DNA from: Alphaproteobacteria bacterium
Lineage (GTDB): Bacteria; Pseudomonadota; Alphaproteobacteria; UBA9219; RGZA01
Reading direction: 5' to 3'
NCBI GenBank assembly: GCA_028278105.1
Contig: JANQEX010000077.1
Coordinates: 2,030-66,029 of the forward strand
Length of the DNA stretch: 64,000 nucleotides
Shown: in pieces, positions 3,099 through 61,817 of the stretch
How the letters are laid out: each line of letters starts with the position of its first letter
How positions within the stretch are numbered: the stretch's first letter is position 1
Position numbers and translations under genes: made by a program
The notes under the pieces: model-generated
Databases searched by the model: none
What the model was told of the DNA's origin: nothing
The model's input: the letters and a program-made list of their open reading frames with translations, nothing else

Positions 3099-3129
3099 GG
3101 CCAATGCCGGCGTAGCCGTCCAGTGTGCG

Positions 3130-3294
3130 CTAGGTTCAATGGACAATTACCAACACGAACATTCCCGCGAAAGCGGGAATCCCATTTATTTTCAAGAACA
3201 AACTGGATTCCGGGTCGCGGTTGCTGCGCAACCTTGCCCGGAATGTTCATTTAGTCTTTTCAATGACTTGAGTTTAATTGTCCATTGAACCTAG
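3130..3294. mobile_element. MITE-A, 165-bp reference copy without insert
   Basis: Perfect 20-bp TIRs CTAGGTTCAATGGACAATTA...TAATTGTCCATTGAACCTAG. Internal arms pair as a long hairpin (GAACATTCCCGCGAAAGCGGGAATCCC at the apex). The same unit recurs at 204, 11290, 20990, 50070 and 54396. Confidence 0.85.
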
Positions 3295-12928: not shown

Positions 12929-14611
12929 ATGGCTTCCTACCAGTATATTTACGTGATGAAGGGCCTGAACAAGGCCTGGCCCGGCGGCAAGACGGTGCTG
13001 AGCGACATCTGGCTGTCCTTCCTGCCGGGGGCGAAGATCGGCGTTCTGGGCGTAAACGGCGCGGGCAAGTCCACGCTGATGCGCATCATGGCGGGGATCG
13101 ACACCGACTTTACCGGAGAGGCCTGGGCGGCCGAAGGAGCCACGGTCGGCTATCTGCCACAGGAACCGCGGCTTGATCCCGCCCGGAATGTTGAGCAGAA
13201 CATCATGCAGGCGCTTGGCGCGAGCCTGGATCTGGTCAGGCGGTTCGAGGAAGTCTCGGCGAAGCTCGGCGAAGTCACCGATGAAAATGAAATGACCGCG
13301 CTCATCGAAGAGCAGGCGGACTTGCAGGAAAAGATCGACGCCGCCGGCGCGTGGGATCTCTCGCGCACGGTCGGAATCGCCATGGACGCGCTGCGCTGCC
13401 CGCCGGGCGACGCCGATGTTGCGAAGCTTTCGGGCGGGGAGCGCCGCCGCGTGGCGCTGGCCCGCCTGTTGCTGCAAAAGCCGGACCTGCTGCTGCTGGA
13501 CGAGCCCACCAACCATCTGGACGCCGACAGCGTGGCGTGGCTCCAGCGCTTTTTGCGCGAATACGCGGGCACGGTGGTGATGGTCACCCATGACCGCTAT
13601 TTTCTTGACGAGGTCACCGGCTGGATTCTTGAGCTGGACCGCGGATCGGGCATCCCCTATCAGGGCAATTATTCGGCCTGGCTGGAGCAAAAACAGAAAA
13701 GGCTGGAGCAGGAGCAACGCGAGGAAGGCGCGCGGCAAAGGGTTCTCGCGCGCGAGCTGGAGTGGATCCGCCAAAGCCCCCGCGCCCGGCAGGCCAAAAG
13801 CAAGGCGCGCATCACGGCCTATGAAAATCTGGTCCGGCAAAGCCAGGAAAAAGCACCCGACACGGCGGCCATCGCCATTCCCGTTCCGCCCAAGCTTGGC
13901 GAGAACGTGATCGAGGCGCGGAAAATTTCCAAGGCTTATGGCGACCGTCTGCTGATCGATGATCTGTCTTTTCGCCTGCCGCCGGGCGGCATCGTGGGCG
14001 TGATCGGTCCGAACGGCGCGGGAAAAACAACCCTGTTCCGCATGATTACGGGACAGGAAAAGCCGGATGCCGGCGTCTTCAAGGTCGGGGAATCGGTGGC
14101 GCTGGGCTATGTGGACCAGAGCCGCGACAGCCTGGACGGCAAAAAAACGGTGTGGGAAGAAATCTCCGGCGGGCACGATGTGCTGGACCTCGGCCCGCGC
14201 AGGCAGGTGCCAAGCCGCGCCTATGTGTCCAGCTTCAATTTCAAGGGGCCGGACCAGCAGAAGAAAGTCGGCGTGCTGTCGGGCGGCGAGCGCAACCGCG
14301 TGCATCTGGCCCGGATGCTGAAATCCGGCGCGAATGTCATCCTGCTGGACGAACCGACGAACGACCTTGACGTCGACACGCTTCGCGTGCTGGAAGAGGC
14401 CTTGAGCGATTTCGCCGGCTGCGCCGTCATCATCAGCCACGACCGCTGGTTTCTTGACCGCATCGCCACGCATATCCTCAGCTTCGAGGGCGACAGCCAT
14501 GTGGAATGGTTCGAAGGCAATTATCAGGATTACGAAGCCGACCGCCGCCGGCGTTTGGGCGCCGAGGCCGACCAGCCCCACCGCATCAAGTACAAGCCGC
14601 TGACGCGGTGA
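12929..14611 (+). CDS. ettA: Energy-dependent translational throttle protein EttA (ABC-F ATPase)
   Basis: 560-aa ORF with two ABC ATPase domains (Walker [10 protein letters not shown] and GPNGAGKTT; LSGGE signatures) and the EttA-specific N-terminus [21 protein letters not shown]. Confidence 0.9.
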
Positions 14612-14631
14612 AGCCGGGGGTTGTGCCGGAC

Positions 14632-14922
14632 ATGAAACGCGCTAGTTTTGAATGGGATGATGCCAAGAACCGCGTCAATCTTGAAAAGCATGGTGTAGCC
14701 TTCAAGGATGCCCAGGAAGCATTTTTCGACCCGGATAGGATTATCTTTCGTGATCTGGAGCACGAAAAAAGCGAAAAACGTTTCTTTTGTTTGGGACTGG
14801 TCAAGGACCGGGTCATGACCGTAAGATTTACAATGCGTCGCAAGCAAATACGCATATTCGGCGCGGGTTACTGGAGACAGGGCAGGAAACGCTATGAGGA
14901 AGAAAACGGGATACGCCGATGA
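14632..14922 (+). CDS. brnT: BrnT-family toxin (DUF497 ribonuclease)
   Basis: 96-aa ORF MKRASFEWDDAKNRVNLEKHGVAFKDAQEAFFDP...RIFGAGYW matching the DUF497/BrnT signature. Immediately followed by an overlapping antitoxin gene. Confidence 0.8.
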   Translation: MKRASFEWDDAKNRVNLEKHGVAFKDAQEAFFDPDRIIFRDLEHEKSEKRFFCLGLVKDRVMTVRFTMRRKQIRIFGAGYWRQGRKRYEEENGIRR

Positions 14923-15130
14923 GCCTTTAAAATTCGGAAAAAGGGTGAAGGACTTTCTTCCCCCGCCCTCCGAATTGGTAAGGCGCGGGCAGACGGAACA
15001 GGTTACTCTTGAACTCAGCCGCAGCAGCCTTGATTTTTTCAGGAAGCGCGCGCGGCGCGGCGGTGTGCCTTTCCGCCGGATGCTCAGCGGGCTGATAGAT
15101 GCCTACGCGCGCAAGCATGATTCAGCCTGA
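14894..15130 (+). CDS. brnA: BrnA-family antitoxin
   Basis: 78-aa ORF overlapping the brnT 3' end by 29 nt, with a C-terminal ribbon-helix-helix-like region (RRGGVPFRRMLSGLIDAYARKH). Typical brnT-brnA operon order. Confidence 0.75.
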   Translation: MRKKTGYADEPLKFGKRVKDFLPPPSELVRRGQTEQVTLELSRSSLDFFRKRARRGGVPFRRMLSGLIDAYARKHDSA

Positions 15131-15200
15131 AGCCGGCCCCACCGCATCAAATACAAGCCGCTGACGCGGTAAAAATGGAGAATGTTCTATAGGAAAGCCC

Positions 15201-17048
15201 ATGACGGAAAATTCATCCCAACCCCAGCCCTTTCAGGCCGAAGTCGGGCGGCTGCTCGACATCGTGGTGCATGCGCTCTACAGCCAGAAGGAAATCTTCC
15301 TGCGCGAGCTGATCTCGAACGCCGCCGATGCCTGCGATCATCTGCGTTATCTGGCGTTGTCCGAGCCCGGACTCGGGCCGCAAAAATACGCCATTCATCT
15401 TGTCGTGAATGAGGAGGAGGGCACGCTCACCGTCTCCGACAACGGCGTCGGCATGAACCGCGAGGAGTTGCAGCAGAATCTTGGCACCATCGCGCGTTCG
15501 GGGACCAAGGCGTTTCTGGAGCGGCTTTCGGGCGACGCCAAAAAAGACATCAACCTGATCGGCCAGTTCGGCGTGGGCTTTTATTCGGCCTTCATGGTGG
15601 CGGACCATGTGAAGGTCATCAGCAAAAAGGCGGGGGACGCGGCGACCCATTGCTGGGAGTCCGACGGCAAGGGCGCGTTCACCCTTGCCGAAACCGCGAA
15701 AAACCTGCCCGGCACCGATGTGGTGCTGCGTCTCAAAAGCGAGGCGCGCGAATTTCTGGACGAGCCGCGCCTGAAACAGGTGGTGCAGGCCTATTCCGAC
15801 CACATCCCCGTGCCCATCTTTTTTGGCGAGGATGAATCCACCCGCCTCAACCGCGCCGCGGCGCTCTGGATGCGGCCGAAAGCCGGGATCACGGCCGAGG
15901 AATACAAGGAATTTTATCACCACGTCGCGCATGCGTTCGACGAGCCCTCGCTCACCATACACTGGAAGGCGGAAGGGGCGCTGGAATACACCGGACTGCT
16001 GTTCGTGCCGTTCCAGCGGCCCTATGACCTTTTCGATCCGCGCCGCACGGGCCGGGTGAAGCTCTACGTCAAGCGCGTGTTCATCACCGACAATGCCGAA
16101 GGGCTGTTGCCGCCCTGGCTGCGCTTTCTGCGCGGCGTGATCGACAGCGAGGATCTGCCGCTGAACATCAGCCGCGAGATGCTGCAACTGAACCCGGTTC
16201 TGGCCAGGATCCGCTCCGGCGTGACGCGGCGCGTACTTTCCGAATTGCAGAAAATGGCGGAGGAGAAAGAGAAATACGCCGCCTTCTGGGACAAATACGG
16301 GGCCATCATCAAGGAAGGCCTCTACGATGATTACGACTTCCGCGACGACATTTTCAAACTCTTCCGCGCCAGTTCCACGAAAGGCGAGGGCGTGTCGCTT
16401 GAGGAGTACCTGTCGCGCATGCCGGAATCGCAGGACTGCATCTATTTCATCACCGGCGATAACGCGGCCATGCTCAAATCCAGCCCGCAGCTTGAGGGCT
16501 TCCGCGCCCGCGGCATCGAGGTGCTTTTGCTCAGCGACGCCATCGACGACTTCTGGGTATCGGCGGTGGGGTCCTATAAGGAAAAGCCGTTCAAATCCGC
16601 CACGCGGGGCGAGGCAAAGCTGGATGATATCAAAAAACCCGAAGAGCCGCCCGCCGAAAGGCCGCCCGCGCCGTCCACCGAGGCTCTCATTAAATCGCTG
16701 AAGGAAATTTTTGGCGAGGCGGTGACCGATATACGTCCCTCGCCGCGCCTGACCGAAAGCGCGGTCTGCCTCGTGGCGGGCGATGGCGACGTGGATATTC
16801 ACCTGGAGCGTCTGTTGCGCCAGAACAAGGCGCTGGGCTACGCGCCCCGGCGCGTGCTGGAAATCAATCCCGCGCACAGCCTCATCCGCCGCATGGCGGA
16901 GATGGCCGAAAAGGGCGAAAAAGAGCCGCTGGCCGATCTTGGCTGGCTGCTGCTGGATCAGGCCCGTCTTCTGGAGGGCGAGCCGCTTTCCGACCCGCGG
17001 GCCTTCTCGCAACGTTTGACTCGACTCGCCGAAAAAGCGGTGGCATGA
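15201..17048 (+). CDS. htpG: Molecular chaperone HtpG (Hsp90)
   Basis: 615-aa ORF with GHKL ATPase motifs ([32 protein letters not shown]) and Hsp90 middle and C-terminal domains. Confidence 0.9.
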
Positions 17049-18354: not shown

Positions 18355-18363
18355 AAAAACAGC

Positions 18364-19006
18364 GTCATCCTGAAAGCCGCGAAGCGGCTATTCAGGATCT
18401 CCTTGCCAATGAAGAAATTTGTCGTTTACATCATGACGAACAAAAAATATGGAACGCTTTATATTGGCGTTACGTCAAACTTGTCGCGGCGCTCTTTTGA
18501 ACACAAGAACGGCACGCTTGGCGGCTTTTGCAAAAAATACAATCTGGACAAACTTGTATATTACGAGATCTATGATGAAGCGGTTCCTGCAATAACGAGG
18601 GAAAAGAAACTCAAGTTATGGAAACGTGCATGGAAAATTGAGCTAATTGAAAGCATGAACCCGCAATGGAATGATCTGGTAAATCATTTGATTAATTGAT
18701 CGCACACGCTATGTATCACAAGATCCTGGATAAACCTCGCCGCCATGCGGCTCGGTTTTCCAGGATGACGTTTTTTATTTCTTGCCCACCGGAACCTTCC
18801 CCCGCGACCCGGCTTCGCTAAAGTGACGCCGGGCCGTTTTTCAAGCTCGTCCTGTGGAGCCGAAGGCGGTGCGGAATTCTGACAAACAGCGTCATCCTGG
18901 AAAACCGAGCCGCATGGCGGCGAGGTTTATCCAGGATCTCGTTGCATGTATTGCTTCACCGGTAAAGATATCCTGAACAGCCGCTTCGCGGCTTTCAGGA
19001 TGACGT
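18364..19006. repeat. AT-rich cassette bounded by inverted family-6 hairpin repeats (GTCATCCTG...CAGGATCTC), carrying a GIY-YIG gene plus inner palindromes
   Basis: Outer pair: 18364-18401 and its reverse complement 18968-19006. Inner pair: 18722-18770 and its exact reverse complement 18891-18940, flanking a REP3 copy (18782-18860). GC drops sharply across 18403-18720. Confidence 0.6.
18409..18699 (+). CDS. GIY-YIG nuclease family protein (COG2827-like, ~96 aa)
   Basis: KKFVVYIMTNKKYGTLYIGVTSNLSRRSFEHKNG carries the GIY...YIG...R...E core. Codon usage is AT-rich, unlike the neighbouring genes. The start was chosen at ATG 18409 (the track ORF begins at TTG 18403). Confidence 0.7.
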   Translation: MKKFVVYIMTNKKYGTLYIGVTSNLSRRSFEHKNGTLGGFCKKYNLDKLVYYEIYDEAVPAITREKKLKLWKRAWKIELIESMNPQWNDLVNHLIN

Positions 19007-19011
19007 TCTCG

Positions 19012-24656: not shown

Positions 24657-25055
24657 CTTTCTGGCGTCATCCTGGAAAGCGCGCGCCGCGCGTTTATCCG
24701 GGATCTCCTGAGCAGGAGAAAGATCCTGAATAAAGCTCGCGCCGCTCGCTTTTTCAGGATGACGCCTCATGGGGCACTGATTTCTGACTTCTGATTACTG
24801 AATGTCATCCTGGAAACCGCCGCAGGCGGTTATCCATGATCTCTTTCTTCCATGGGCACAAGATCCCGGATAAACGCGCGGCGCGCAGTTTCCGGGATGA
24901 CGCCTCATGGGGTACTGATTTCTGACCTCTGATTACTGAATGTCATCCTGGAAACCGCCACGGGCGGTTATCCAGGATCTCTTTCCCCCATGGGCACAAG
25001 ATCCCGGATAAACGCGCGGCGCGCAGTTTCCGGGATGACGCCCTTTTGGCAAGAT
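24657..25055. repeat. Cluster of family-6 hairpin repeats including a ~140-bp tandem duplication
   Basis: Units GTCATCCTGGAAA..TTATCC(A/G)GGATCTC occur at 24666, 24722(rc), 24806, 24862(rc), 24943 and 25003(rc). The composite 24757-24896 is repeated about 95% identically at 24896-25036. Confidence 0.8.
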
Positions 25056-47978: not shown

Positions 47979-49711
47979 CGGGCCGGTTTGCCTTCCTTGC
48001 CGTCTTTTACGCCGCGCTGCTGGCAGGCTCCCCGCTTTATGCCGGCTGCGTGAACCCGCCGGGCGTGAACGGGGAGGCGATTTATAACGCGGATCACAAC
48101 GTCATGCAGTTCTGTGACGGCGCAAGCTGGATCAGCATGGCGGCTTCCGGTTCGGCCACCGAGGTGGACCCCAAGGTGGGCACGCTGGAAAACGGCAAAT
48201 GGTGTTCATCCAATGGTGTCATCATCACCTGCACCGAGGATGCGCCCGTCAGCGGCGCGGGCGGCTCCAGCGGGCAGGTGCAGTATAACACCGGCACCGG
48301 GCTTGGTGGTGCCGTGGCCGTCACCTATGCCACCTCCGGTGATCTGCTGATGCTTATATCGCAGGCGGCCACCGACATTCCCCTGGTGATAAAGGGCGCG
48401 GCGGACCAGACGGGGAATCTTCTGGAAATACGGGACTCCGATGACACGCCGCTGGTCACGGTCTCTTTTGCGGGCGTAATCGGCGGCTCCGGCGCATCGC
48501 TCACCAGCCTGAACGCCGATAGCCTCGCCAACGGCACAATCCCCGACGCGCGGTTTCCGGCCACGCTTCCCGCATCTTCGGGCGCGAACCTCACCGCCTT
48601 GAACGCCGGCAACATCTCCAGCGGCACGGTGGCCACGGCGCGGCTGGGTTCGGGAACGGCCAACAGTTCCACTTATCTGCGCGGGGACGGCGCCTGGACA
48701 AGCGTGAGCGCGGGCACGACCCTGCCCGATTGCGCGGACGGGCAAATCGTCGTGCGCCTGGACGGCGGATGGGTGTGCAAGAATCAGTTCACATGGGTCT
48801 GCTCCGTCACATGGACGCAGCGCACCGGCGCGGGCAGCCGGATCTGGTTCGACATCGCCAGCAGCAGCGACGGCGCCAAACTGGCGGCGGTGGTCCGCGG
48901 CGGCTATATCTACACCAGCAGCGACGGCGGCGCGACCTGGACGGCGCGCACCAGTGCGGGCAGCTGGGAGTGGATCGCCATCGCCAGCAGCAGCGACGGC
49001 GTCAAGCTGGCGGCGGTGAACGACTCCGACGACTATATTTACACCAGCAGCGACTCCGGCGCGACCTGGACGGCGCGCACCAGTGCGGGCAGCCGGAGGT
49101 GGAGCGGCATCGCCAGCAGCAGCGACGGCGTCAAGCTGGCGGCGGGAGTCTACGGCGGCTATATCTACACCAGCGATGACTTCGGAATGACCTGGACGGA
49201 ACAGACTGCCGCGGGCAGCCGGGAGTGGCTCTACATCGCCAGCAGCAGCGACGGCAGCAAGCTGGCGGCGGCGACAGCCAGAAGCTTCGGCTATATCTAC
49301 ACCAGTAGCGACAGCGGTGCGACCTGGACGGCGCGCACCGGCGCAGGCAGCCGGAGGTGGAAGGCCATCGCCAGCAGCAGCGACGGCGTCAAGCTGGCGG
49401 CGGGGGTCTACAACGGCTATATCTACACCAGCAGCGACAGCGGCGCGACCTGGACGGAGCAGGCCGGCGCGGGCAGCCGGGTCTGGTACCGCATCGCCAG
49501 CAGCAGCGACGGCAGCAAGCTGGCGGCGACCGGCGTCGGCGGTTATATCTACACCAGCAGCGACAGCGGCGCGACCTGGACGGAGCAGTCCGGCGCGGGC
49601 AGCCGGACCTGGTACCGCATCGCCAGCAGCAGCGACGGCAGCAAGCTGGCGGCGGCTGTCTACAACGGCTATATTTACACCGGCGCCACAACTTGCGATT
49701 TTTTTGAGTGA
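47975..49711 (+). CDS. Secreted mosaic protein: phage-tail-fibre-like repeats plus eight BNR/Asp-box-like beta-propeller blades
   Basis: Signal peptide MTGRFAFLAVFYAALLAGSPLYAG. The central region (SLNADSLANGTIPDARFPATLPASSGANLTALNAGNISSGTVATARLGSGTANSSTYLRGDGAWTSV) resembles phage tail fibre repeats. It is followed by eight ~40-aa repeats IASSSDG.KLAA....GYIYTSSDSGATWT..T.AGSR.W containing S-x-D-x-G-x-T-W boxes. Confidence 0.65.
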   Translation: MTGRFAFLAVFYAALLAGSPLYAGCVNPPGVNGEAIYNADHNVMQFCDGASWISMAASGSATEVDPKVGTLENGKWCSSNGVIITCTEDAPVSGAGGSSGQVQYNTGTGLGGAVAVTYATSGDLLMLISQAATDIPLVIKGAADQTGNLLEIRDSDDTPLVTVSFAGVIGGSGASLTSLNADSLANGTIPDARFPATLPASSGANLTALNAGNISSGTVATARLGSGTANSSTYLRGDGAWTSVSAGTTLPDCADGQIVVRLDGGWVCKNQFTWVCSVTWTQRTGAGSRIWFDIASSSDGAKLAAVVRGGYIYTSSDGGATWTARTSAGSWEWIAIASSSDGVKLAAVNDSDDYIYTSSDSGATWTARTSAGSRRWSGIASSSDGVKLAAGVYGGYIYTSDDFGMTWTEQTAAGSREWLYIASSSDGSKLAAATARSFGYIYTSSDSGATWTARTGAGSRRWKAIASSSDGVKLAAGVYNGYIYTSSDSGATWTEQAGAGSRVWYRIASSSDGSKLAATGVGGYIYTSSDSGATWTEQSGAGSRTWYRIASSSDGSKLAAAVYNGYIYTGATTCDFFE

Positions 49712-49739
49712 CAATCCTTCAAGGGACGCGGCTTTTTTT

Positions 49740-50050
49740 ATCCCCCTCCCTTTGGCCCGCCTTCGCTAAAGCTCCGGCGAGGTCCTTGAAGAAAGCCCGT
49801 CCGCCGAAGCCCGCAGGGCGGAGGCGGAGAGGGGTTAGGGGAGGGTGTGTAAACAGGGTCACAAGGGTCAGGAGGGTCAAAGACCCTTTTGACCCTTTCG
49901 CCCCCTTATGCCCCTCAGTTATCCCTCCCCCTTGCCCCCTCCCGGAGGGAGGGGGGATGGGATTTTCATTCCCCTCTCTCTGGCCGCCTGCGCTAAAGCT
50001 GCGGCGGGCGCATTTGCAAGTGTGCCCTGCGAAGCCGAAGACGAAGCAGG
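49740..50050. repeat. Composite repeat region (family-5 hairpins, a family-4 array and REP3-like palindromes)
   Basis: 49852-49912 is a GGGTCA/TGACCC array. 49925-49975 CCCTCCCCCTTGCCCCCTCCCGGAGGGAGGGGGGATGGGATTTTCATTCCCCTCTC. 49985-50050 is REP3-like (GCGCTAAAGCTGCGGCGGGCGCATTTGCAAGTGTGCCCTGCGAAGCCGAAG). Confidence 0.65.
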
Positions 50051-50069
50051 CTGGCGGGAGCGGGAATGC

Positions 50070-50323
50070 CTAGGTTCGATGGACAATTACCAAGACGAAC
50101 ATTCCCGCCCCCGCCTGTCCGCCTCCGCAAGCTTCGGCGCGACGGGTACGCCAAAACCTCGGCGTAGCCGCAGGCGAAGCCGGGCGCGGGGGCAGGCTCC
50201 AGCGGGAATCCCATTTGTTTTCAAGAACAAATTGGATTCCGGGTCGCGGTTGCTGCGCAACCTTGCCCGGAATGTTCATCTCGTCTTTTCAATGACTTGA
50301 GTTTAATTGTCCATTGAACCTAG
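50070..50323. mobile_element. MITE-A copy with a REP2 element nested at the apex
   Basis: TIRs CTAGGTTCGATGGACAATTACC...GTTTAATTGTCCATTGAACCTAG. The REP2 insert (about 50108-50205) sits between CATTCCCGC and GGGAATCCC, exactly as in the copy at 11290. Confidence 0.8.
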
Positions 50324-54353: not shown

Positions 54354-54395
54354 GCGGACGCCTCATCATCTGACAAACGACAGGAACACTTTACT

Positions 54396-54518
54396 CTAGG
54401 GCCAATAGACAATTACCAACATGAACATTCCCGCGAAAGCGGGAATCCCATTTATCTTCAAAAACAAACGGGATTCCGCAGGCGCGGCTGCTTCACAACC
54501 TTACCCGGAATGTTCATT
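54396..54518. mobile_element. MITE-A, degenerate right-truncated copy
   Basis: CTAGGGCCAATAGACAATTACCAACATGAACATTCCCGCGAAAGCGGGAATCCCATTTATCTTC...GGAATGTTCATTAATGG lacks the right TIR. Confidence 0.65.
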
Positions 54519-56215: not shown

Positions 56216-56295
56216 AACGGCAGGCCGGAGCCTGCCGTCTCATTTTGTGAACAACGTCTTGTTAACGGTAAGACGCCGTTTTCTAATCAGCTGTT
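56216..56295 (-). ncRNA. Predicted tracrRNA of the type II-C system
   Basis: The minus strand at 56272-56292 is a perfect 21-nt complement of the crRNA repeat segment GACGCCGUUUUCUAAUCAGCU, extendable with a bulge. Downstream on the minus strand lie the hairpin AACAAGACGTTGTT and the terminator GACGGCAGGCTCCGGCCTGCCGT-TTTTTGTTT. The upstream promoter is TTGACG-N18-TAAAAT (56300-56329). Confidence 0.7.
56217..56238 (-). terminator. Rho-independent terminator hairpin (tracrRNA 3' end)
   Basis: ACGGCAGGC-CGGA-GCCTGCCGT stem-loop followed on the minus strand by UUUUUGUUU. Also U-rich on the plus side. Confidence 0.7.
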
Positions 56296-56299
56296 GCGA

Positions 56300-56329
56300 A
56301 TTTTAGCCGGCCGGGCTTATCGTCGTCAA
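56300..56329 (-). promoter_or_regulatory. Predicted sigma70 promoter of tracrRNA (minus strand -35 TTGACG, 18-bp spacer, -10 TAAAAT)
   Basis: Reverse complement of 56324-56329 is TTGACG and of 56300-56305 is TAAAAT. The hexamers are the same as in the repeat-embedded promoters of the array. Confidence 0.5.
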
Positions 56330-56353
56330 GGCAATTTAATAGGGGGACAAGCA

Positions 56354-59300
56354 ATGAAAACCCGTCTTGCGCTTGATCTAGGCTCAACATCACTCGGATG
56401 GTGCCTTCTGGAAATGAACAATGAGGCGCCCACAGGCATAAAAGCCATGGGAGTACGCATATTTCCCGACGGACGCGACAATCAGTCCAAGAAGCCCCTG
56501 GCTGTTGCCAGGCGCTTGGCGCGCGGCATGCGCCGCAATCATGACCGGCGAAAATGGCGGCGGCAATTGCTGATGTCTTATCTCGTGGAGAAAGGACTTA
56601 TGCCTTCCACGAAAAGCGAACAAAAGGAACTGGAAAAGCTTGACCCATACGAACTTAGGGCCAGGGCAATCAAGGAAAAACTGTCGCCCTTTCAAATTGG
56701 CCGGGCCTTGTTTCATATAAATCAGCGCCGCGGATTCAAAAGCAATCGAAAAACAGATAAAAAGGAAAATGACGCAGGCGCAATGAAGAACGCCATAAGG
56801 GATTTGGATGGCAAGCTAATGTCTTCCGGCTACCGGACACTTGGCGCCTATTTGAACAATCTCCATCAAGAGAACAAGCCCGTTCGCGTTCGCCGCGCTG
56901 TGGTCGGGAAAGAGACTTCGTATAACTTCTATCCTGAAAGAAAAATGTACGAAGAAGAAGTTGACCGGATTCTGAAAGAGCAGGAAAAGCACCACCCAAT
57001 CCTTACCGAAGAGATTTGCAGGCGAATCAAGGAAATCATTTTTTTCCAGCGCCCCCTGAAACCAGCGAAAGTTGGGAATTGCGTCTTTGAAAATAGAGAG
57101 CCCAGAGCCCGGCTCGCCCTGCCAATTGTGCAAAAATTCCGCATTCTGCAAGAAGTAAACAACCTGGAGATTGAAGATTTTGGTTGTGGCGAAAGGCAAT
57201 TAACGCAGGAGGACCGGAAAAAGATCATCGAGCGCCTCCGCGTCAACAGGCGGATAACCTTTAAGGGTTTACGGAAATTTCTCAAGCTTGGCAGCGATCT
57301 CCGGTTCAATCTTGAAAGTGACAAAAGAGATGAACTGGCTGGTGATGTAACCTCGTGCCTGTTATCCGACGACAGGGCTTTTGGTTCACGGTGGCAAAAA
57401 CTGACGGACGATGAACGGGAAAAAATTGTTGAATTGCTTTTTGAGGAATCTCATGAGGAGAAACTAATCCATGCGCTTGCAGGGCAATTTGGGGCCACGC
57501 CCGAACAGGCCCTTTATGTTTCCGGCCTTGATCTTCCCGACGGCTATGGCCGTGTGAGCAAAAAAGCCATTCAGAAAATGCTTCCTCATCTGGAGGCGGG
57601 TTGCCGTTATGCGGAAGCCGCAAAAAGGGCCGGTTATCATCATTCTGACTTTCGAACAGGAGAGGTTTTCGACGAGCTACCCTATTACGGGCAGGTCTTG
57701 CAAAGCCAGGTGATCGGCGGAAGTTACAGCGAAGATGATAAGGCGAGTCCCGAACTCTATTACGGCAGAATTAACAACCCTTCGGTGCATATTGCGCTCA
57801 ACCAGTTGCGCAAGCTTGTTAACTCCATCATCGCCGCATACGGCAAGCCGGATGAGTTCGTCATCGAACTGGCGCGGGATTTAAAAGAACCTGCCGGCAA
57901 GATTCTTGAGGAACAGTCAAAAAACACAAAAGACAACAAACGCATCAGCGCCGAACTGGAAAAACTTGGCGTGAGAAACAATTATCGCAACCGCATGCTT
58001 TATAAATTGTGGGAAGATTTGGCCAAACAGCCGGAACGGCGTTGTTGCCCCTTCAGTGGCACGCAAATTTCCGCCGCGGACATTTTTTCAGGAAAATTCG
58101 AGGAAGAGCATCTTCTGCCCTTCTCCCGCAGCTTTAACGATGGAAGGGCCAACAAGGTTCTCTCCCGTGTCGACTGGAACCGGAAGAAAGGCAACCGCTC
58201 TCCTTTCGACGCTTTTGGTCACGAGCCTTTCTGGCCGGATATTATGGCCCGTGTACAAAATCTGCCTGCAAACAAGCAATGGCGGTTTAAAAAAGACGCA
58301 TGGACGCGGATGGAAGGCGAAGACGGCGTCATTGCCCGCATGCTGAACGACACACGCTACATGTCGCGTCTTGCCAAAGCCTATCTATCCGCTGTCTACG
58401 ATAACGAGAAAGGCAAAAGCAGTGTTTGGGCGTCAAACGGACAGCTTACGGCGCTGCTTCGCAAAAAGCTGGGCCTGAACGCTCTCCTTGGCGAGGACGA
58501 TTCCAAGGACAGGGCCGATCATCGTCATCATGCGGTTGACGCTTTTGTTGTCGGCCTTGGTGACCGGGGCTTATTGAGAAAGGTTTCGGATGCCGCCCGA
58601 CGCATGGAAACCACGGAGGGGCTTTGGGAAAAACGCCAGAAACTCGTGGAAGGTCTGGAAGAACCTTTTCCCGAATTCAGGGAAAAACTGGTCAATCATC
58701 TGGAGACCCTGGTTGTTTCCTTCAAACCGGATCACGGCAATGCACAAAAAGCCGTCCATGCAGCCCCGCCCTACACCATTGCCCCGCTGCACGATCAAAC
58801 GGCTTGCGGATTTATCGGCAAGGGAGAAGGAAATAACACTGTACTTGTCGCAACCCGCAGGCCCGTTGAAAGTCTTGAAAAGATCAAGCATATAGAGGAA
58901 ATAGCCGACGCCGTTATCCGCAATGAACTGCTTCAGGCCGTAAAAGGCCTTAAAGAAAAAAGCACGGAGTGGAAACAGGCCCTCGCGGCCTTCACGGCAC
59001 GGACAGGCACGAGAAGAGTTCGTGTCCACATTAAGCGGAGCAAGGACACCCTTATTGGCATTTCCTCCGGCCATCAGCAAAACAATCCCTACAAATACTA
59101 TGCAACCGGCGGAAATTACTGCGCGGAAATTTATTGTCCTGACAAGGGCAGGCTTGCCGGCAAATGGCAATGCGAGGTGATTTCGAACTATGACGCGCAC
59201 CGGAAGGACTTTGTGCCCGAATGGAAAAAACAGAATCCTGCCGCAAAACGGGTCATGCGCCTGCAAATAGACGACATGGTTGCCTACGAGAAGGATGGGG

Positions 59301-59500
59301 AAACCGTCATCGCGCGCGTGAAAAAAATTGCAAAAGGCCATGGCGGCCGAATCTACTTCCGCAAGCACACCGTTGCGAAGGAAGAGGCCGACAAACTTAG
59401 TTGGTGTGCTTTTGTTTCACGCATGCAAGCGGCAAATTTGCGAAAAATTTCCGTTGATATTATTGGCCGCGTGCGTGACCCAAGGGCCAGAGTCGCATAG
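56354..59500 (+). CDS. cas9: CRISPR-associated endonuclease Cas9, type II-C (1048 aa)
   Basis: RuvC-I MKTRLALDLGSTSLGWCLLE at the N-terminus (RBS AGGGGGA upstream). HNH motif EEEHLLPFSRSFNDGRANKVL...NRKKGNRSPFDAF. Arginine-rich bridge helix (RRLARGMRRNHDRRKWRR). Compact size and no csn2/cas4 nearby. The track ORF start at 56294 is an upstream in-frame extension. Confidence 0.9.
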   Translation: MKTRLALDLGSTSLGWCLLEMNNEAPTGIKAMGVRIFPDGRDNQSKKPLAVARRLARGMRRNHDRRKWRRQLLMSYLVEKGLMPSTKSEQKELEKLDPYELRARAIKEKLSPFQIGRALFHINQRRGFKSNRKTDKKENDAGAMKNAIRDLDGKLMSSGYRTLGAYLNNLHQENKPVRVRRAVVGKETSYNFYPERKMYEEEVDRILKEQEKHHPILTEEICRRIKEIIFFQRPLKPAKVGNCVFENREPRARLALPIVQKFRILQEVNNLEIEDFGCGERQLTQEDRKKIIERLRVNRRITFKGLRKFLKLGSDLRFNLESDKRDELAGDVTSCLLSDDRAFGSRWQKLTDDEREKIVELLFEESHEEKLIHALAGQFGATPEQALYVSGLDLPDGYGRVSKKAIQKMLPHLEAGCRYAEAAKRAGYHHSDFRTGEVFDELPYYGQVLQSQVIGGSYSEDDKASPELYYGRINNPSVHIALNQLRKLVNSIIAAYGKPDEFVIELARDLKEPAGKILEEQSKNTKDNKRISAELEKLGVRNNYRNRMLYKLWEDLAKQPERRCCPFSGTQISAADIFSGKFEEEHLLPFSRSFNDGRANKVLSRVDWNRKKGNRSPFDAFGHEPFWPDIMARVQNLPANKQWRFKKDAWTRMEGEDGVIARMLNDTRYMSRLAKAYLSAVYDNEKGKSSVWASNGQLTALLRKKLGLNALLGEDDSKDRADHRHHAVDAFVVGLGDRGLLRKVSDAARRMETTEGLWEKRQKLVEGLEEPFPEFREKLVNHLETLVVSFKPDHGNAQKAVHAAPPYTIAPLHDQTACGFIGKGEGNNTVLVATRRPVESLEKIKHIEEIADAVIRNELLQAVKGLKEKSTEWKQALAAFTARTGTRRVRVHIKRSKDTLIGISSGHQQNNPYKYYATGGNYCAEIYCPDKGRLAGKWQCEVISNYDAHRKDFVPEWKKQNPAAKRVMRLQIDDMVAYEKDGETVIARVKKIAKGHGGRIYFRKHTVAKEEADKLSWCAFVSRMQAANLRKISVDIIGRVRDPRARVA

Positions 59501-59511
59501 GAACAGGGATA

Positions 59512-60420
59512 ATGCTTGCCCGCATCATAGAAATAACAACGGATAACAGGCACCTTTATGTTGAACGCGGCTTTATGTGCATCAGCGCGCATGGAGAAGA
59601 GCAGGCCAGAATAGCGCTTGATGACATAGGCGCTGTTATCTCCTGCGCGCATGGCCTGACCTTCAGCAACAATCTTCTTGTCCAACTGGCGGCGCGGAAT
59701 ACCCCGTTTATCGCATGTGGGTCGAATTTTGTTCCTGTTGCGTGCCTTTGGTCCCTGGAGGGAAACTACAACCAGTCCTCCCGCATGGATGCCCAGATCG
59801 AGGCGACAAAACCAAAAAGCAAGCAATTGTGGAAACAAATCGTTCAGGTGAAGATTACCCAGCAGGCCGCCGTTCTGGAAGCTGTTGGCGCAAACCCGGC
59901 GCCGGTCAAGGCCCTTGTCAGGTTTGTGCGTTCGGGTGATCCTGAAAACATTGAAGCGCAGGCGGCGCGGCGTTATTGGCAGGCCTTGTTCGGAACGGAC
60001 TTTCGCAGGGACCAGACCGCGGGCGGGATAAACGCACTCCTTAACTACGGATATATGATTATCCGTTCATGCGTCGCCAGAGCCATTATGGGCGCGGGCC
60101 TGCACCCTTCGCTTGGCATACATCATTCCAATGCCGGCAACCCCATGCGCCTGGTCGATGACCTGATGGAACCCTACCGCCCTTTTGTTGATTTCGCCGC
60201 GTGGCATTTGAAACAGCGAAAACAGGAAGAAGTGACGGCGGAAACCAAACGGGAGCTTGTCGCCGTTCTGGATAAGGAAATTGCAACGGAAAAAGGCATG
60301 ACAACCCTTCGAAACAATATTCAGGATGCGGCAACAGGCCTCGCTTTCATTTTCATGGATAAACAAAAAAGCCTTGAACTTCCCAGCCCCCAACCCCCGC
60401 TCTGGCTCGAAACATCATGA
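59512..60420 (+). CDS. cas1: CRISPR-associated endonuclease Cas1 (type II)
   Basis: 302-aa ORF directly after cas9. Type II Cas1 features include the N-terminus MLARIIEITTDNRHLYVERG, the NYGYMIIRSCVARAIMGAGLHPSLGIHH region and a conserved E/H/E catalytic arrangement. Confidence 0.85.
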   Translation: MLARIIEITTDNRHLYVERGFMCISAHGEEQARIALDDIGAVISCAHGLTFSNNLLVQLAARNTPFIACGSNFVPVACLWSLEGNYNQSSRMDAQIEATKPKSKQLWKQIVQVKITQQAAVLEAVGANPAPVKALVRFVRSGDPENIEAQAARRYWQALFGTDFRRDQTAGGINALLNYGYMIIRSCVARAIMGAGLHPSLGIHHSNAGNPMRLVDDLMEPYRPFVDFAAWHLKQRKQEEVTAETKRELVAVLDKEIATEKGMTTLRNNIQDAATGLAFIFMDKQKSLELPSPQPPLWLETS

Positions 60421-60755
60421 GCCAGGTCCCTTACAGCAGGTTCCGACTCATGTGGATGATGGTGATGTTCGACCTCCCGGTCATGACGTCCGCCGAAAGA
60501 AAGATGGCAACGAAATTTCGTAATTTCCTTCTCGATAAAGGATTTGAAATGTCGCAGTTTTCAGTGTATTTTCGTTTTTGTGGGGACAGAAGCAACACAA
60601 CGCCCTATGTGAACAGCATCAAAAAGAATGCGCCAAAAGGCGGGCGCGTCAGTATTCTTTTTTTCACGGATAAACAGTTTTCCGAAATCATCAATATCCA
60701 GAACAGGGCCGTGCAACCACCAACAAAAAATCCGGATCAACTGGTGTTGATATGA
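60417..60755 (+). CDS. cas2: CRISPR-associated endoribonuclease Cas2
   Basis: 112-aa ORF overlapping the cas1 stop by 4 nt, with the Cas2 N-terminal beta strand MWMMVMFDLPV and conserved FSVYFRF. Confidence 0.8.
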   Translation: MSQVPYSRFRLMWMMVMFDLPVMTSAERKMATKFRNFLLDKGFEMSQFSVYFRFCGDRSNTTPYVNSIKKNAPKGGRVSILFFTDKQFSEIINIQNRAVQPPTKNPDQLVLI

Positions 60756-60825
60756 CTTTTTTCCCCGAATTTTCAGCAAAAAAAGAAAAGATAAGCCCTC
60801 TGTTTCAAGGGCTTATCTCAAAGGC

Positions 60826-61785
60826 ATTATAGCTGATTAGAAAACGGCGTCAAACCGCAACGACGGCAGTATCCATCATTTTTATGACACGATTATAGCT
60901 GATTAGAAAACGGCGTCAAACCGCAACAGACCCCTGCTCGCCATCGCCAAACAACGCATTATAGCTGATTAGAAAACGGCGTCAAACCGCAACTTACGGT
61001 GGTCGGCGGCGTAGCTACGGCTCATTATAGCTGATTAGAAAACGGCGTCAAACCGCAACGCGCTGTAGGTGCGGACGATTACGTAATCTATTATAGCTGA
61101 TTAGAAAACGGCGTCAAACCGCAACAGCGCACTGCCCAATGTGACTGACCATTAAATTATAGCTGATTAGAAAACGGCGTCAAACCGCAACTGCTCACCG
61201 CGTCCGAAATAGACTGGAACGATTATAGCTGATTAGAAAACGGCGTCAAACCGCAACTCGCGGCGTGGGCGGCTGCAATATGCGATTATTATAGCTGATT
61301 AGAAAACGGCGTCAAACCGCAACTTGAGCTCGGCCTGGCTGTTCAGGAGGCTCATTATAGCTGATTAGAAAACGGCGTCAAACCGCAACGACAAAACCGT
61401 TCGGTATTTATCCGTTTTGATTATAGCTGATTAGAAAACGGCGTCAAACCGCAACCCAAACAACGCACTCGACTGCCAATACTCAATTATAGCTGATTAG
61501 AAAACGGCGTCAAACCGCAACAGCTGCGCTGCCGCCTGCGCTGTTGTCTGCATTATAGCTGATTAGAAAACGGCGTCAAACCGCAACTGGCGATGCGCGC
61601 GCAAGCGGCATAGAGAAATTATAGCTGATTAGAAAACGGCGTCAAACCGCAACAGTCAAGGTTCGGAGGGACGGAGGTTCGTAATTATAGCTGATTAGAA
61701 AACGGCGTCAAACCGCAACATACCGATAGCAGCGGCGCGTAGCGCGTCCATTATAGCTGATTAGAAAACGGCGTCAAACCGCAAC
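60826..61785 (-). CRISPR. CRISPR array of 15 identical 36-bp repeats and 14 spacers of 30 bp
   Basis: Plus-strand repeat ATTATAGCTGATTAGAAAACGGCGTCAAACCGCAAC. Canonical orientation is the reverse complement GTTGCGGTTTGACGCCGTTTTCTAATCAGCTATAAT, which resembles the Neisseria type II-C repeat ends GTTG...ACAAT and contains TTGACG-N16-TATAAT. The period is exactly 66 bp. The minus strand was assigned from the repeat-internal promoter orientation. Confidence 0.95.
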
Positions 61786-61817
61786 AATTTCGGCGATGAT
61801 AAGAAGCTTCTTAAAAA

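Follow-up and report, generated by a model that had tools for sequence, protein, structure and literature searches.

BrnT/BrnA is a type II toxin-antitoxin (TA) system with its prototype in Brucella abortus, represented in Pfam by the families PF04365 and PF14384, in which the toxin gene comes first and the antitoxin gene follows and overlaps it. Integrative elements that target the 3′ ends of protein-coding genes bring a replacement end for the gene they enter, as e14 and phage 21 do in icd, and as ICESt1, ICESt3 and their integrase-less derivatives, the cis-mobilizable elements (CIMEs), do in fda. Inserts flanked by a duplication of variable length, with no element-specific ends, arise by Campbell-type integration, by homology-facilitated illegitimate integration and by capture through non-homologous end joining (NHEJ). 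BrnT/BrnA has been listed among the TA systems of integron cassettes (PMC7370490). We analyzed a 64,000-nt stretch of an alphaproteobacterial chromosome (contig JANQEX010000077.1 of assembly GCA_028278105.1, positions 2,030 to 66,029; hereafter the window), in which a brnT-brnA pair lies between ettA, a gene for an ABC-F translation factor, and htpG, a gene for a heat-shock chaperone. The pair is a foreign insert, and it is flanked by two copies of the end of ettA, the upstream one completing the ettA reading frame and the downstream one running directly into the htpG leader. Overall, this is a BrnTA module with a recombinational insertion scar, fairly ordinary and of known kinds. What is new here is that gene-end duplication recurs in the brnTA family, which overturns no current view and offers a lead for a wider survey.

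The segment between the two repeat cores measures 525 nt (14612-15136, + strand) and contains two open reading frames (ORFs) only, brnT and brnA, with no integrase or transposase among them. brnT (14632-14922, + strand) encodes a DUF497/BrnT ribonuclease toxin of 96 aa, which matched PF04365 over residues 8-82 (E 5.1e-23; 81.6 bits, cut-off 34.5) and retained every one of the 25 columns that are invariant among 37 aligned homologues. Translation could alternatively begin at a GTG at 14608, which forms GTGA with the ettA stop codon, and public record P0001 is a 104-aa gene call for the same brnT. The second ORF (14894-15130, + strand; 78 aa) overlaps brnT by 29 nt, in the toxin-first order of the prototype. 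Unlike the prototype's antitoxin, its product matched PF14384 only below threshold (E 0.017; 16 bits, cut-off 26.1), and no NCBIfam model matched it. Since a homologous ORF with 31-62% identity occupies the same position, overlapping brnT, in approximately 90 brnT loci, the small partner is probably a member of the BrnA family. GC content was 0.53 in the insert against 0.61-0.63 around it, falling to approximately 0.49 in brnT, and GC content at third codon positions (GC3) was 0.52 in brnT and 0.65 in brnA, compared to 0.80 in ettA and 0.79 in htpG. Thus, by composition, the pair is foreign to the host chromosome.

The last 36 nt of ettA, CCCCACCGCATCAAGTACAAGCCGCTGACGCGGTGA, which comprise its last 11 codons and the stop codon TGA, are located at 14576-14611, and a second copy, reading ...AAA...TAA, is located at 15137-15172. 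The consensus of both copies is CCCCACCGCATCAA[G/A]TACAAGCCGCTGACGCGGT[G/A]A, and the two substitutions between them fall at 14590/15151 and 14610/15171. A first-pass annotation of the window had already reported that the ettA end recurs downstream with two substitutions and that the copies bracket just the two TA genes, and both statements were borne out, with 20 nt between the ettA stop codon and the brnT ATG and 6 nt between the brnA stop codon and copy 2. Its measurements needed correction: the repeat is real, but the strings quoted as 32 nt are 35 nt long and start at 14577 and 15138, the second one ends at 15172 rather than 15170, and the gap between them is 526 nt instead of 524 bp. A repeat search extended the match to 41 nt, 38 of them identical (copy 1 at 14572-14612 and copy 2 at 15133-15173, both on the + strand), with a start-to-start spacing of 561. 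Past 41 nt both flanks aligned no better than shuffled controls, and a gapped extension reaching into the end of brnA was rejected as not significant. No third copy of the 36-nt repeat was present within the window at up to 3 mismatches (0 expected from 100 shuffles), and the repeat search found no inverted repeats pairing the two ends of the insert.

Copy 1 is the true end of ettA, its 11-residue peptide being the normal EttA C-terminus in 80 other genomes, and its TGA runs on into AGCCGG. Copy 2, contiguous with the htpG leader and by chance in frame with brnA, runs from ...AAA...TAA on into AAATGGAG. The two junction sequences of the insertion are GCGGTGAAGCCGGGGGTTGTGCCGGACATGAAACG and TTCAGCCTGAAGCCGGCCCCACCGCATCAAATAC. 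In addition, a 9-mer, TGAAGCCGG, is found on the + strand both directly after copy 1, as the left edge of the insert (14609-14617; the ettA stop codon and 6 nt), and directly before copy 2, as its right edge (15128-15136; the brnA stop codon and 6 nt), so the layout of repeat and 9-mer is X-Y-insert-Y-X, a feature absent from the first-pass annotation. With six occurrences in the window (14609, 15128, 26382 and 42118, and on the - strand 43615 and 53387), this 9-mer exceeds the 1.3 that shuffles would predict. We rejected it as a repeated genomic element, as the four copies away from the insert ends share no context. The 36-nt repeat itself matched no Rfam family at E <= 1; it contained no promoter-like site, and terminator-like sites occurred at chance level and on the other strand only. 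Because the copies differ from each other and independent assemblies show the same geometry, an assembly artefact is an unlikely source of the repeat.

The state of the junction before insertion was examined in the nearest relatives by HtpG (L170-L173; 74-75% HtpG identity and approximately 78% nucleotide identity in ettA). The window and these relatives have in common the gene order Peripla_BP (- strand)-ettA-[variable]-htpG-argG...folD, and ettA-htpG-argG is kept in all of L170-L173. In L171, ettA ends in ...CAT TAA and htpG follows 12 nt later with a single ettA end, which is the empty site that had been proposed as a check. Together with the low GC and GC3 and the Pfam match of BrnT, this bore out the claim of a discrete TA insert between ettA and htpG. 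Other relatives carry unrelated genes at the same place, namely a 350-aa ORF in L170 (2832-3884, - strand) and a 373-aa ORF in L172 and L173 (L172 1199-2320, + strand), neither with a Pfam match at E <= 1 and neither accompanied by a second ettA end. A degenerate second ettA end before htpG in L170 looked plausible by eye and was no better than shuffles. The ettA-htpG junction is therefore a variable spot and a recurrent landing place for accessory genes. The ettA stop codon is TAA in two of the three relatives examined (L170 and L171), as in copy 2. Because the empty site of L171 has one ettA end, TAA and then htpG, copy 2 is best identified as the old terminus of ettA, now displaced and non-coding, and the TGA of copy 1 and what follows it appear to be the new sequence that closes ettA today.

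The first-pass annotation had offered a site-specific insertion as one explanation, and this part of its proposal was not supported. Among 80 other ettA loci from species-representative genomes (71-79% identity to the ettA of the window), none had a second copy of the ettA 3′ end within 4 kb, and none had htpG, brnT or brnA near ettA; a general attachment site in ettA was ruled out by this count. Two of the relatives described above have their unrelated junction ORFs with no repeat. Furthermore, the closest BrnT homologues are found elsewhere, P0002 and P0003 (75% and 74% identity) between rlmH and gpmI and others after phaC (72%), between trpA and accD (70%) and in TA-rich islands. Of the two mechanisms put forward earlier, a cassette that brought a spare gene end and a duplication of the target in place, the evidence leans to the first because the repeat stops at the stop codon, the two stop codons differ, and copy 2 has the TAA of two of three relatives. 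The second keeps a real share of the probability, as discussed below.

In order to see how other members of the family are flanked, 78 non-redundant brnTA loci were scanned for sequences present in the 400 nt upstream of brnT and again after brnA, using mismatched locus pairs as the null (99th percentile, 13.5). Fifteen loci exceeded it. Eight of the 78 sit between integron attC sites, with brnA running into attC, and the attC strands of L144 and L165 folded with z scores of -3.1 and -3.6. At four loci, the window among them, it is the end region of the host gene upstream that is duplicated; of the 48 loci at which the upstream ORF is co-oriented, 3-4 show this pattern. The first-pass annotation had suggested a search for other brnTA copies with the same flanks; at the three loci other than the window, the end region of a different gene is duplicated. 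In L081, brnTA (72% BrnT identity) follows phaC, and the end of phaC is repeated over 26-32 nt on both sides of the pair; the first copy has the stop codon TAG and the second TAA. The second copy also overlaps a convergent methyltransferase gene at its 3′ end, and both neighbors are intact. As a separate observation on L081 (4506-4537), phaC and the methyltransferase gene must have overlapped by approximately 20 nt before the insertion, and the duplicate now serves each of them. In L094, the last 24 nt of an NAD(P)HX dehydratase gene, its stop codon and 44 nt beyond are duplicated, and in L101 the duplicated stretch is 54 nt inside the upstream ORF. The cassettes of L094 and L101 are homologous only from approximately 65 nt before brnT to just after brnA, and the stretches between this core and the repeats are unrelated, which argues against a transposon-like element with defined ends.

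The remaining three loci above the null had a duplicated promoter region of 194 nt, a low-complexity stretch and an intergenic repeat containing a hairpin, and one further locus, with a terminator-like repeat, exceeded the null as well. The 194-nt direct repeat, in L174 (1106-1299 and 1857-2050), flanks brnTA in a TA-rich island and includes the pair's own promoter/operator region, which suggests a tandem duplication of cassettes. No flanking repeats were observed at the 17 brnTA loci on IMG/VR viral contigs, nor at L179, a roomy intergenic site. The plasmid collection yielded only two distant matches. Literature searches returned no equivalent of TA cassettes flanked by gene-end duplications; a case described in Microcystis involves 152-bp intergenic repeats rather than duplicated gene ends (PMC7935541).

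As the best reading of the exact insertion mechanism, held tentatively and a little short of being probable, we propose that a spare ettA end came in on a small DNA and served for recombination with the resident one. A promoterless foreign brnT-brnA pair would have reached the tight ettA|htpG junction on a circularized fragment, or on the last remnant of an integrative element, with the spare ettA end on board. A crossover within or just upstream of the approximately 35 bp, either a Campbell-type single crossover or a one-sided homologous recombination, would then leave ettA whole, the immediate upstream sequence of htpG untouched, and a direct repeat ending where the coding homology ends. Copy 1, with TGA and joined to the cassette, would close ettA, and copy 2, with TAA and joined to the htpG leader, would be left as a non-coding relic. 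Such an import would account for a repeat that, in the window as in L081, goes no further than the stop codon, for the difference between the stop codons, with copy 2 having the TAA of two of three relatives, and for the variation of repeat length and filler between loci. Some support comes from an ettA of another lineage (L061; CAYNIS010000231.1, approximately 2289-2344), whose end is identical over 56 nt, TGA included, to copy 1 and the 20 nt before it (33 of 33 sense nt of copy 1), when ettA overall is only 74% identical. This is the longest run of identity to the ettA of the window among 82 loci compared, and the chance of 17 of 17 codons matching, given the amino acids, is approximately 3e-4 per locus and approximately 0.03 after 82 loci. 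The comparison indicates that the ettA end may serve as a cross-lineage homology patch, and the L061 identity is a weak hint that copy 1 was imported.

Several points weigh against an import of this kind. L061 is only the top of a continuous distribution, in which the next loci match at 15 of 17 codons, and identical runs of 40-49 nt occur elsewhere in ettA. Neither a donor nor a near-identical cassette was found, the best BrnT homologue having 75% identity. Among the host relatives compared, none is closer than 75% in HtpG, so the empty site holds at family level only, and sliding ettA identity to L170 and L171 is uninformative at 78%, with no recombination tract visible. The differences between the copies are few and could postdate a duplication in place; synonymous versus non-synonymous differences were considered as a discriminator and dropped, because the sites are too few to separate the models. 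The presence of TGAAGCCGG at both ends of the insert is unexplained without an earlier event in the donor. In L175-178, brnTA is inserted in the equally tight trpA|accD junction and has no repeat. Finally, 35 bp is near the lower limit for a RecA-dependent crossover.

The close rival, though an unlikely one on our estimate, is a duplication in place, in which a staggered break with a stagger of approximately 35 nt at the ettA end captured a small cassette and fill-in of the overhangs duplicated the target. The capture, for example of a linearized circular cassette, could have proceeded by end-joining or by replication template switching, and NHEJ capture of heterologous DNA is documented in alphaproteobacteria. 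If the circle had been opened with a 9-nt stagger, its fill-in would have duplicated TGAAGCCGG too, and this is the sole explanation that yields the X-Y-insert-Y-X layout in one step. It also fits the repeat length, which varies from 26 to 70 nt between loci, the cassette ends, which are not conserved, as expected for random breaks, and the mismatches, which cluster near the repeat edges in the window and L081 and are compatible with error-prone fill-in; relatives of the cassette do occur in integrons, where cassettes are cut out as small circles (PMC7370490). However, the top-strand break must have fallen exactly at the boundary between the sense codons and the stop codon of ettA, into an insert that happened to start with an in-frame stop, and the same boundary coincidence is needed again at phaC in L081, whose insert lacks a clean terminal redundancy (TAGAATGCGG versus TAGGGCCCGG). 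The stop codons differ between the copies, with that of copy 2 as in relatives, and the IMG/VR loci and roomy L179 show no such repeat. If the insert were instead the remnant of an integrase-driven element, or a CIME-like mini-element mobilized in trans, the copies would be attL and attR, and all but the TA pair would have been deleted. Such elements are recognized by a repeat that is the 3′ end of the target gene, stops at the gene end and places the element-supplied end beside the gene body. The TGAAGCCGG copies on either side of the core in a reconstructed attP could be recombinase-binding repeats, and TA pairs resist deletion more than any other part of an island. We nevertheless consider this improbable, given that there is no integrase in 525 nt and two ORFs between copies flanked by syntenic core genes, and that none of the 80 other ettA loci has a second copy of its end. 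The element would also have had to lose everything up to 20 nt before and 6 nt after the TA genes, with comparable trimming in L081, and the unrelated repeats of the four loci would require four integrase specificities.

Those four unrelated targets in one TA family could instead point to a dedicated mobility mechanism, one that places brnTA mini-cassettes at the ends of genes and creates target-site duplications of 26-70 bp. In its boldest form, the brnTA pairs of this clade would be non-autonomous mini-cassettes that leave integrons or other sources as small circles, enter tight junctions and systematically duplicate 26-70 bp of the upstream gene end, and the window, L081, L094 and L101 would be four footprints of one mechanism. 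The insert ends of the window and L081 are indeed alike (left, GAAGCCGG and GAATGCGG; right, AGCCGG and CCCGG). On the other side, the duplication is found in only 3-4 of 48 loci, L094 and L101 have no conserved termini, there is no enzyme candidate, and to our knowledge no bacterial transposition system makes such long and variable duplications. We would not give a dedicated mechanism, in either form, more credence than an integrase remnant, and perhaps slightly less. Placement of an integron gene cassette by IntI at a secondary site is suggested by the eight related loci between attC sites, by the tight and promoterless character of the cassette in the window, as in integron cassettes, and by the left junctions of the window (GTGAAGC) and L081 (GTAGAAT), which match GTTRRRY at 6 of 7 positions. 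What speaks against it is that the 3′ end of the cassette forms no attC-like fold (z +0.7 and +1.0 on the two strands for 15105-15185 in the window, and -0.1 for L081) and that an R'' TAACAA motif is lacking. The flanks are ettA and htpG rather than an array, and no intI was seen nearby, although the window as a whole was not searched systematically for intI. IntI recombination is moreover conservative and creates no 35-nt target duplication. For the eight relatives the integron origin is true, and for the window and L081 the missing attC fold led us to rule it out, so that it is the least credible of the explanations considered.

Both neighbors of the insert are intact. ettA (12929-14611, + strand; 560 aa, with copy 1 as its last 11 codons and stop) encodes a full-length EttA by TIGR03719 (947.6 bits; cut-off 806.75) and NF008775 (941 bits; cut-off 599), with two ABC_tran domains and ABC_tran_Xtn in Pfam. 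htpG (15201-17048, + strand; 615 aa) matched Pfam HSP90 at E 1e-110 and is preceded by a 28-nt leader, so that leader and gene together occupy 15173-17048. No sigma-70-like promoter was found for brnTA within the insert, where only 20 nt precede brnT, and the operator palindrome CCATAT..ATATGG is absent, in contrast to the promoter and the operator that relatives carry just upstream of brnT. Since only these 20 nt, or a GTGA stop/start overlap, separate ettA from brnT, expression of the pair probably depends on read-through from ettA or on coupling to ettA, and the absence of its own promoter and operator suggests that it is probably transcribed from ettA and not autoregulated. A promoterless TA pair under the transcription of a translation-factor gene and directly upstream of a heat-shock chaperone gene may couple their expression. 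The locus is a clean natural example of a selfish TA pair wedged between packed housekeeping genes with neither of them damaged: there are two copies of a short piece of the upstream gene, of which one finishes the gene and the other stays with the downstream leader. This gives a simple rule for recognizing such inserts. An addictive TA pair would stabilize the insert, and recombination between the copies could delete it cleanly, which predicts precise loss.

Several other features of the window were recorded. Beside the ettA-htpG junction there is a second small variable spot between argG and folD, where an AT-rich ORF for a 98-aa GIY-YIG nuclease (18403-18699; flanks 18355-19010) has inverted copies of the motif CAGCGTCATCCTG...GGATC around it; the same position in L170 and L171 is occupied by other small ORFs. 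A type II CRISPR-Cas locus at 56294-61803 encodes a 1068-aa Cas9 (RuvC_III, HNH_4 and Cas9_a) and Cas1 (59512-60420), with a CRISPR array from 60826 of at least 15 repeats of 36 nt at a 66-nt period. Dispersed repeats of approximately 40-100 nt (D5, D6, D8 and D9; 28-323, 3127-3212, 50067-50279 and 54393-54517), some of them with palindromes, look like miniature inverted-repeat transposable elements or repetitive extragenic palindromic elements. There is also a 138-nt tandem duplication with 93% identity at 24751-25026, and periodic repeats of 126-129 nt lie in or beside ORFs at 48733-49782.

Compared with the described systems, the module itself is close to the BrnT/BrnA prototype, with a toxin above the Pfam cut-off, its invariant residues kept and a conserved small partner. 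Like integron TA cassettes, it is a compact promoterless two-gene module with almost no flanking non-coding DNA, but it has no attC, intI or array, and its flanking repeats are the coding end of a host gene rather than recombination sites. Transposons, insertion sequences (IS) and casposons also produce inserts flanked by a direct duplication of the target. Their duplications are 2-15 nt, whereas those here are 35-41 nt and those at the other loci 26-70 nt; a transposon or IS was ruled out, as there are no terminal inverted repeats, no transposase ORF and no short duplication of fixed length. The resemblance to integrative elements of gene 3′ ends is closer, since in both cases direct repeats of the gene 3′ end stop at the gene end, the copy proximal to the element keeps the gene intact, and the displaced original end stands at the far side. 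They differ in that the insert of the window is 525 nt without an integrase, that the site is unused in 80 other genomes, and that the scars elsewhere involve unrelated genes. Campbell-type, illegitimate and NHEJ routes are generic processes and not a gene family, and it is with their products that the four brnTA loci agree in showing duplications of variable length and no fixed ends.

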